DNA of 32,000 nucleotides from Erysipelothrix larvae (GTDB taxonomy: Bacteria; Bacillota_I; Bacilli_A; Erysipelotrichales; Erysipelotrichaceae): assembly GCF_001545095.1 (NCBI RefSeq), contig NZ_CP013213.1:150001-182000 (forward strand). Direction: 5' to 3'. The translations under genes and the position numbers were made by a program. Below, in pieces: positions 17,543-19,258 of the stretch; positions within the stretch are counted from its first letter, which is position 1, and each line of letters begins with the position of its first letter. A model generated the notes under the pieces. That model did no database searches. It saw nothing but the letters and a program-made list of their open reading frames with translations, and was not told the origin of the DNA.

Positions 17543-17830
17543 TTGATTCATATCGCTTTATCAAGATGTGTGACTATGGAGTGAACTACCCGCCACTAAG
17601 CATACGCTCGAAGTGGGGGCTTCTTGAGAACAAAGCAAACTTAATCGACATTCCTGTCGACCAGCGGTCACTTTTATTTATCAAGCTATCCCCGATGTCC
17701 CATCGGTTTATTGTTTTTCATTCTTAGGATTGATGCGAAAGTCTTAATCCTTCATTCAGGATATTGATGCTTGCATTCAAATCACGATCGTGTGTGATGT
17801 TGCAGTTGGAACATTCCCATTGACGTATCT
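17543..17830 (-). ncRNA. Candidate omega-RNA (TnpB guide RNA scaffold) spanning the tnpB 3' end and right end; extent approximate
   Basis: The roughly 130-180 nt after the tnpB stop is conspicuously GC-rich and structured compared with its AT-rich flanks. Hairpins are CCGATG-GGA-CATCGG (17692-17706), TCGACA-GGAA-TGTCGA (17645-17660) and CTC-GAAG-CCCCCA-CTTC-GAG (17607-17628). The position matches where omega-RNAs are encoded in IS605 elements. Confidence 0.45.
17607..17628 (-). repeat. Right-end subterminal hairpin of the IS element
   Basis: The plus strand reads CTCGAAGTGGGGGCTTCTTGAG. The stem is GAAG/CTTC with an outer CTC/GAG, followed by TTG as at the left end. Confidence 0.55.
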
Positions 17831-18857: not shown

Positions 18858-19258
18858 CGCTTTTCCCCCTGTGTCTCAATATACTGTTTCAACACTTCTA
18901 GAGGAGCACCACCAACAGAAATAAAGCAGAAACTCTTTGAGCAAAAAGCATCTTTCCAAAGGGATGCTTTCACTTTTGGAAATTCTTTCTTAATCAAGCG
19001 ACTGCTTGCACTTTTGTAAGCATTGATAAACTTGCTAAGTGGTGTATTTGGATGGGCTTTGAATAGAATATGAACATGGTCAACATCATGATTCCATTCA
19101 ATACAGGTGATATTGTAGTTTGGAGCAATGGAAACAAAGATTTCATGAGCCCGTTTCGAAATTGAATCGTTGATGACTTTTCTGCGATATTTTGTGACAA
19201 AAACCATATGATATGTCAATAAAAACACAGAATGAGCATTATTGTCTAAAACCTGCAT
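18854..19258 (-). CDS. tnpA: IS200/IS605 Y1 (HUH) transposase TnpA
   Basis: Start at ATG 19258 (MQVLDNNAHSVFLLTYHMVFVTKYRRKV), 8 nt after GGGGAG, whereas the ORF-track start 19267 is GTG. The HUH motif is in DHVHILF and the catalytic Tyr is in LKQYIETQ. The stop TGA overlaps the tnpB ATG. Confidence 0.92.
   Translation of the reverse strand: MQVLDNNAHSVFLLTYHMVFVTKYRRKVINDSISKRAHEIFVSIAPNYNITCIEWNHDVDHVHILFKAHPNTPLSKFINAYKSASSRLIKKEFPKVKASLWKDAFCSKSFCFISVGGAPLEVLKQYIETQGEKR

Follow-up and report, generated by a model that had tools for sequence, protein, structure and literature searches.

The stretch of DNA investigated in this study, in the following termed the window, comprises 32,000 nucleotides (nt) of the genome of Erysipelothrix larvae (NZ_CP013213.1, positions 150,001 to 182,000). 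Its minus strand contains one complete IS200/IS605 element at positions 19368-17581 (1788 bp), an insertion sequence of the IS605 group that carries both tnpA and tnpB. The element is inserted 3' of the hexanucleotide TTTAAC and terminates in TTCAC. Since TTTAAC is found on the side of the left end (LE) only, with the flank of the right end (RE) beginning with TCCATA, and since the target is not duplicated, the arrangement shows the pattern of an IS200/IS605 insertion. The subject of this work is the region that follows tnpB, which, as judged from its comparison with related insertions, very probably represents the right end of an intact element together with the gene for the omega-RNA (also termed reRNA) of its TnpB nuclease. 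An omega-RNA scaffold located 3' of tnpB with the adjoining flank as guide had already been proposed in an original prediction, and this general assignment is strongly supported by the comparative evidence, the match of a covariance model, the covariation of helices and the sharp boundary described below. The features of the locus, in the order in which they are read on the minus strand, are as follows:

Positions 19374-19369, minus strand: target site TTTAAC and putative transposon-associated motif (TAM), directly 5' of the left end
Positions 19368-19268, minus strand: left end, assigned from its sequence and an LE block shared with relatives
Positions 19267-18854, minus strand: tnpA, a Y1 (HUH) transposase (Pfam Y1_Tnp PF01797, NCBIfam NF033573)
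Positions 18857-17724, minus strand: tnpB, an RNA-guided endonuclease of 377 amino acids (Pfam, NCBIfam, alignment to ISDra2)
Positions 17708-17581, minus strand: core of the putative omega-RNA scaffold, 128 nt, entirely non-coding (covariance model, covariation, minimum-free-energy (MFE) fold)
Positions 17706-17692, minus strand: hairpin 1, CCGAUG-GGA-CAUCGG (covariation)
Positions 17692-17685, minus strand: invariant scaffold element GGGGAUAG
Positions 17685-17681 with 17627-17623, minus strand: long-range helix CUUGA/UCAAG (covariation)
Positions 17674-17671 with 17635-17632, minus strand: inner helix (helix B) AAAG/CUUU (covariation)
Positions 17660-17645, minus strand: variable hairpin TCGACA-GGAA-TGTCGA, the second hairpin of the original prediction (covariation)
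Positions 17620-17588, minus strand: terminal stem CCCCCACU / AGUGG(C)GGG (98% paired in the long subfamily, MFE fold)
Positions 17587-17581, minus strand: single-stranded tail AGUUCAC, the 3' end of the scaffold
Positions 17580-17565, minus strand: putative guide TCCATAGTCACACATC, 16 nt of host DNA directly 3' of the right end

Both genes of the element are readily assigned. The product of tnpA matches Y1_Tnp over its full length (PF01797, E 1e-39) and reaches 130.6 bits with NF033573 (cut-off 55); an alternative ATG at position 19255 may serve as its start. The coding sequence (CDS) of tnpB overlaps tnpA by 4 nt and ends with a stop codon at 17726-17724 on the minus strand, in agreement with the stop at 17724 given in the original prediction. 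Its product contains the Pfam domains HTH_OrfB_IS605, OrfB_IS605 and a Cas12f1-like TNB domain, scores 449 bits with NF038281 (cut-off 425) and is homologous over its full length to TnpB of ISDra2 from Deinococcus radiodurans (PDB 8exa, 8h1j and 8bf8; E 8.5e-69 in the alignment to 8exa/8h1j). The RuvC positions of the protein are represented by the motifs GIDLG, CIETL and HDRDLN. The aspartate of the first aligns with D191 of ISDra2 TnpB, whose mutation leads to a loss of cleavage (PMC8612924), and the glutamate of the second and the aspartate of the third align with the motifs TEHL and HDRDEN.

The comparison with other elements is based on a protein-seeded scan covering one genome per species, which provided 80 loci with up to 64% protein identity. 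These originate from Enterococcus, Amphibacillus, Ligilactobacillus, Staphylococcus, Fusobacterium, Coprobacillaceae and others, and in many cases one genome contributes multiple copies. Five of these loci (L013, L017, L018, L020 and L029) are non-autonomous tnpB-only derivatives that are devoid of tnpA and have the LE directly upstream of tnpB. In the window, the LE contains an imperfect palindrome (TCTCCGACTT-CTAT-AAGTGGGGGA, 19353-19330), and 28 relatives share a conserved LE block GAAGTC..CTATAGGTGGGTGATGAAT with it. A promoter-like site at 19315-19287, defined by a consensus match only, is located within the LE upstream of tnpA. The palindrome of the RE at 17620-17588 coincides with the terminal stem listed above and subterminal imperfect palindromes are thus found at either end, with no inverted repeats at the termini. 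Directly in front of the LE, the window carries TTTAAC, as do 26 of the 27 relatives for which the upstream flank is available; the remaining one shows TTTAAG, and sequences farther upstream are unrelated, which makes TTTAAC the likely TAM of the window TnpB. As a separate observation, the left ends of three Enterococcus loci (L003, L004 and L009, at about 1900-1960) read GGCATTCATCGCCC... compared to GGCAGAAGTCGCCC... in other copies. This change generates a longer perfect palindrome with the downstream GATGAATGCC and replaces an AGAAG located just 5' of the LE hairpin, a motif that also precedes the hairpin at the right end.

On the opposite side of the element, the relatives share a common block 3' of tnpB that extends up to ...GTAGTTCAC or ...AGGTTCAA, and beyond this point no two of them are alike. 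The conserved terminus, ...GTAGTTCA(C/A) followed by unrelated sequence, was found initially in 37 and subsequently in 70 related insertions. In these 70 independent insertions, the information content amounts to 2.0 bits at positions -6 to -2 (GTTCA) and 1.0 bit at position -1, and it does not exceed 0.2 bits between +1 and +25, with the drop occurring within one base. The junction in the window reads GTGGCGGGTAGTTCAC|TCCATAGTCACACATC..., and together with the drop in conservation this places the right end at position 17581, after GTAGTTCAC. The comparison of multiple copies proposed along with the original prediction has thus revealed 70 related insertions that retain the scaffold and diverge exactly at the boundary of the putative guide.

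The described boundary differs from the three that had been considered previously, at about 17597, at 17561 and at 17543, where the scaffold would end either earlier or later and the guide would be GTGGCGGGTAGTTCAC, AAAGCGATATGAATCAATAG or TAGCTTAACCTTTTCTTTGA. Beyond the resemblance of the motifs TTGAT and TCAA to the ends of other IS200/IS605 elements, nothing speaks for these positions, and it appears that ISDra2/IS608-like motifs were sought in an element that instead ends with TTCAC and targets TTTAAC. The first of the candidates comprises the 3' arm of the terminal stem and the invariant tail of the scaffold; it is conserved in all relatives, with 2 bits per position at GTTCA, and pairs with CCCCCAC. 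The other two begin in unconserved host DNA, 20 and 38 nt past the boundary, and the segment 17580-17543 has no counterpart in any of the 70 insertions. Since the match of the covariance model described below also ends at 17581, we consider it most improbable that any of the three defines the guide. With the right end located at 17581, the rule that about 16 nt of the flank act as guide (PMC8612924, PMC10097598) instead points to TCCATAGTCACACATC at 17580-17565, which may extend to 17561 (TCCATAGTCACACATCTTGA) if the enzyme uses 20 nt. When the window was searched with the 22-mer combining the putative TAM and guide, the sole near match was the junction with the RE flank (GTTCAC|TCCATAG...), with two mismatches that are both located in the TAM. 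Scans of metagenome and viral contigs with the exact right-end pattern gave no hits and a protein-seeded scan of metagenomes gave nothing closer than 64%.

For the detection of the scaffold we have used R1, a covariance model of 146 positions built from 30 relatives with the window excluded. On the 32-kb window, R1 finds a single strong match at 17708-17581 on the minus strand (111.4 bits, E 9e-27), which covers the model from position 1 to 146; a second match of 14 bits inside tnpA (18879-19013, minus strand) is noise. The scaffold defined in this way begins 15 nt past the stop codon of tnpB and finishes at the right-end boundary. Its nucleotide identity amounts to 80-84% with the closest relatives and to 73-81% with the more distant loci tested, compared to 70-73% for the CDS of tnpB, the gene thus being less conserved than the non-coding scaffold. 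The original claim that no open reading frame (ORF) would explain the block holds, since an antisense ORF of 53 amino acids (17566-17727, plus strand) is open across the scaffold in just 3 of 71 relatives, for which reason we have rejected it as coding. The enrichment in G+C noted for this region is real but modest, with 48% in the scaffold and a peak of 53%, compared to 33-38% in the flank below 17570 and about 40% in tnpB.

The structure of the scaffold is reflected in its pattern of substitutions. We have analyzed 60 distinct aligned sequences with respect to four helices, namely hairpin 1, the long-range helix, the inner helix and the variable hairpin, which together comprise 21 pairs. Standard pairs are formed in 94.9% of the resulting cells, and changes on both sides are observed in 10 of the 21 pairs, in a total of 54 cells. 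None of 500 shuffles reaches any of these measures, and sliding the partners against each other reduces pairing to 33-49%. The window contributes compensatory changes of its own: in hairpin 1 the fourth and fifth pairs are swapped (from U-A/A-U to A-U/U-A), in the long-range helix the last pair is A-U compared to G-C in relatives, and in the inner helix A-U replaces G-C. Two of the three hairpins proposed initially, CCGATG-GGA-CATCGG and TCGACA-GGAA-TGTCGA, are thus maintained in relatives by compensatory changes. The third (CTC-AA-GAAG-CCCCCA-CTTC-GAG, 17628-17607) can be drawn but is not part of the conserved fold, as it competes with the terminal stem at 17620-17588; its outer CTC/GAG pairing is broken in 53-58 of the 60 sequences and the helix is 66% paired. 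Similarly, the G-rich segment described in this region is present, although it is the 3' arm of the terminal stem. As a single sequence, the 128-nt scaffold folds with an energy of -44.3 kcal/mol (z = -3.26, with none of 200 shuffles as good) and reproduces the same helices. The corresponding value for the opposite strand is z = -1.79, and the fold of the broader region of 271 nt that had been delineated in the original prediction is not unusual (z = -0.95). With respect to the long-range pairing, a local helix UGGU/ACCG, obtained with RNAalifold from the raw MAFFT alignment in place of CUUGG/CCAAG, was rejected, as two G-to-A changes would remain uncompensated. In the long-range helix, which corresponds to stem 2 of ISDra2, two of four changes are compensated, including the one of the window, and we thus slightly prefer the latter arrangement. 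In one relative (L026:2540-2705), the scaffold contains a tandem duplication of about 21 nt at the variable hairpin.

Hairpins of this kind might alternatively act as intrinsic terminators or attenuators, either of tnpB or of convergent transcription. A consensus scan does indeed flag the variable hairpin on the minus and hairpin 1 on the plus strand, yet the three sites found compare to 1.3 +/- 1.1 expected from shuffles, and the runs of U/T, which are weak in the window, are missing from relatives, whose corresponding hairpins have AAG in front of them and CAAGUAUGC after them. As such a role would also not require a conserved multi-helix fold of 128 nt that ends at the boundary of a transposon, we regard it as very unlikely.

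The 3' part of the scaffold is formed by an imperfect terminal stem and a single-stranded tail of 7-8 nt, which are both present in every subfamily, with the sequences of the stem differing between them. The stems of the subfamilies read CUCCCACUU/AAGUGG(U)GAG, CUCGUGACU/AGUCAUGAG, CCCGUGAC/GUCAUGGG and CUCCUUCUU/AAGGAGGGG, compared to CCCCCACU/AGUGG(C)GGG in the window, where the stem is part of the minimum-energy fold of the single sequence. The ends of IS200/IS605 elements such as IS608 and ISDra2 are built on palindromes of this type. It could thus be argued that the block is a right end at the level of DNA alone, consisting of a single-stranded hairpin recognized by TnpA and a cleavage site, and that it has no function as RNA. 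The terminal palindrome of the RE (CCCCCACT..AGTGGCGGG) does resemble its counterpart in the LE (TCTCCGACTT..AAGTGGGGGA). However, TnpA needs approximately the last 40-50 nt, whereas here a further 85 nt or so upstream are conserved and contain covarying helices. Moreover, due to its G.U pairs, the RNA of the minus strand folds much better than its complement, and its layout matches the omega-RNA of ISDra2 whose structure has been solved. A role confined to DNA therefore appears improbable, if slightly less so than one in termination.

Several observations weigh against the assignment of the block as an omega-RNA gene or against details of this assignment. The terminal stem is at the same time a DNA hairpin recognized by TnpA, and its conservation alone is no proof of a role as RNA. 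In the window, this stem lacks the apical 18 nt or so (AAGAACC-GUUA-GGUUU) that are found in the closest relatives and it contains one U.U mismatch at a position where these have a U-A pair. The GUUCA of the tail is invariant and the same as in the ISDra2 type, and consequently offers no covariation to identify a pseudoknot partner. In a consensus scan, no sigma-70-like promoter is prominent immediately upstream of the scaffold, and the source of the transcript is for that reason deduced indirectly. The boundary, although perfectly sharp, rests on relatives of at most 64% protein identity and on a single copy in the window, and the length of the guide, whether 16 or 20 nt, is an assumption.

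The shortened stem and its mismatch could also indicate that the window contains a non-functional relic of a genuine omega-RNA gene. Other subfamilies, however, work with even shorter terminal stems, and in the window both ORFs are of full length, the catalytic motifs are present and both ends are intact. The E. larvae genome contains at least three further copies of tnpB that are 97-98% identical, and the element is multi-copy in this organism. In addition, an independent assembly from a near-identical strain (Logan SRR6161627; L081:1-47 and L082:1-28) shows the same insertion, with contigs that end 47 nt inside the RE and 22 nt inside the LE, a pattern that fits a multi-copy repeat in this strain. 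We thus consider a relic to be unlikely, while regarding it as the least improbable of the described alternatives. The look-up of the two neighboring genes gave this one other assembly and no empty site was found. Exact look-ups with TnpA and TnpB of the element and with the three paralogues (P0002-P0004) yielded no contigs. Among the paralogues in the same genome, one TnpB (P0004, 97-98% identical) starts with MPTGLKIYPN... compared to MKRAYRFRIYPN..., which suggests that it is a frameshifted or re-started copy.

If the block encodes the omega-RNA of an intact element, as we consider very probable, its function can be outlined by analogy to ISDra2. In this system, the RNA that co-purifies with TnpB originates from the 3' end of tnpB and the right end, with the last 16 nt or so being a guide derived from the flank, and the target motif of TnpA is also the TAM of TnpB (PMC8612924). 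The reconstituted donor joint, consisting of TAM and flank, is reported to be the natural target, with the excised copy being re-installed by repair (PMC8612924; preprints of Meers et al.). The gene content of the window element, its boundaries, its conservation and its covariation can be read from the compared sequences, whereas transcription and processing, the binding of TnpB, guide length, cleavage and the use of the TAM are inferred from ISDra2 and its relatives. The omega-RNA would be transcribed together with tnpB or be processed from its message and would extend into the flank by about 16 nt. TnpB would bind the scaffold and use the flank-derived TCCATAGTCACACATC as guide. Excision by TnpA would recreate the donor joint TTTAAC|TCCATAGTCACACATC as natural target, where TnpB would recognize TTTAAC as TAM, pair the guide and cut, and recombination with an intact sister copy would then restore the element. 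The occupied site would be spared, since there the match to the guide is preceded by GTTCAC and not by TTTAAC.

The structure of the ISDra2 RNA permits an assignment of the individual parts of the scaffold. This RNA consists of a scaffold of 116 nt and a guide of 16 nt and contains the stems 1, 2 (long-range), 3a, 3b (flexible) and 4 (terminal), together with a pseudoknot between UUC at positions -5 to -3 of the tail GUUCAA and GGA at positions -105 to -103 (PMC10097598). Hairpin 1 and GGGGAUAG, a 5' region with a GGA motif, would correspond to the region of stem 1 and the pseudoknot partner, CUUGA/UCAAG to stem 2, AAAG/CUUU to stem 3a, the variable hairpin to stem 3b, the terminal stem to stem 4 and the tail AGUUCAC to the pseudoknot strand. 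The right end of an ISDra2-like element from Deinococcus (GAATCACGCGACTTCAGTCGTGTGAGGTTCAA) is almost superimposable on that of the 'short' subfamily (GAATCTCGTGACTTTAGTCATGAGAGGTTCAA) and aligns with the relatives at GAAUC-hairpin-GAGGUUCAA, whereas R1 does not detect the RNA of this element, the similarity in sequence thus being confined to the 3' third. There are further differences. The TAM of ISDra2 is TTGAT compared to TTTAAC in the window, and the window scaffold is located wholly past the stop codon of tnpB, whereas the scaffold of ISDra2 overlaps with the ORF; hairpin 1 is part of the ORF in relatives that are more distant. Finally, the 5' hairpin of the window is a tight stem of 6 bp with a 3-nt loop, whereas in ISDra2 a stem closes a large loop that contains the pseudoknot partner. 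The motif GGA/GAA occurs twice in the window scaffold, in the loop of hairpin 1 and in the invariant GGGGAUAG. In this Bacillota clade of TnpB, the putative omega-RNA thus opens with a compact hairpin of 6 bp, which covaries and has a GRA loop of 3 nt, and the invariant GGGGAUAG follows directly. It is conceivable, although rather doubtful, that GUUCA of the tail pairs with this element 3' of the hairpin and not with a loop, which would result in a pseudoknot topology unlike that of ISDra2 in the context of the same protein fold and tail.

The closest elements outside E. larvae are found in Enterococcus cecorum and other Enterococcus spp., with identities of 63-65% for the protein and about 81-84% for the scaffold. 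They have in common with the window the target TTTAAC, the plan of LE and RE and the right-end terminus GTAGTTCAC; their terminal stem contains the apical AAGAACC-GUUA-GGUUU that the window lacks, and several stems carry compensatory substitutions. The aligned loci may include the EceTnpB that was studied experimentally. For the clade of this enzyme, Wiegand et al. have predicted the TAMs TTTAA and TTTAT, with which TTTAAC of the window agrees, and EceTnpB is an active nuclease that removes target plasmids from E. coli (PMC10705468). A second system can be likened to the window by its TAM alone, and is thus to be taken as a lead. This is ISAam1, whose TnpB is a compact protein of the Bacillota type. 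It is used for genome editing with the TAM 5'-TTTAA (PMC12908284), and hence shares the TAM core TTTAA with the window.

A different relationship concerns nuclease-dead homologues. At gathering thresholds, no Rfam family is found in the window or in 14 relatives. A permissive search retrieves RF02841 (Ref70) at 17594-17712 on the minus strand with 22.1 bits (E 0.76), far below the gathering score of 115, and we have thus rejected the window scaffold as a member of this family. Ref70 nevertheless shares a 5' hairpin (CUGUAG-GGA-CUACAG), a GGGAU motif and a long-range helix (CCUAG/CUAGG, preceding GGAA) with the window scaffold, which is a distant relative. In E. faecalis (NZ_CP143580.1, L164:2201-2310), Ref70 scores 117.9 bits, above the gathering score, and begins 4 nt past an annotated gene of the TnpB family that is itself located downstream of opp1F. 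Ref70, which is filed in Rfam as a plain Enterococcus sRNA, is thus found exactly where the oppF-associated TldR has its guide RNA. Wiegand et al. describe the latter RNA in E. faecalis as natively expressed with a guide of 9-11 nt and do not use the name Ref70 (PMC10705468), and no relevant publication was found in a literature search for 'Ref70'. TldR is nuclease-dead, represses oppA and lacks transposon ends, whereas the window TnpB contains intact RuvC motifs, is accompanied by an adjacent tnpA and is flanked by LE and RE, and we have for these reasons dismissed the window RNA as a TldR guide RNA.

With respect to its surroundings, the element is located 168 nt upstream of a response-regulator gene (17412-16744) of the same orientation, which heads a cluster encoding an ABC-transporter and a histidine kinase, and just upstream of a promoter-like site of this gene (17464-17436). 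Read-through from the element into the response-regulator operon is conceivable.

Collectively, the window scaffold is a regular and ordinary member of the known class of TnpB-associated omega-RNAs. The result matters little beyond a correct annotation, which for this unannotated IS605-type element of Erysipelothrix concerns its exact ends, the likely TAM TTTAAC, the scaffold and the probable true guide. Its parts would be directly usable for testing another compact TnpB of the TTTAA type. Our comparison also illustrates that the prediction of a guide from a single copy by the resemblance of motifs fails, whereas the comparison across insertions sets the boundary to the base.

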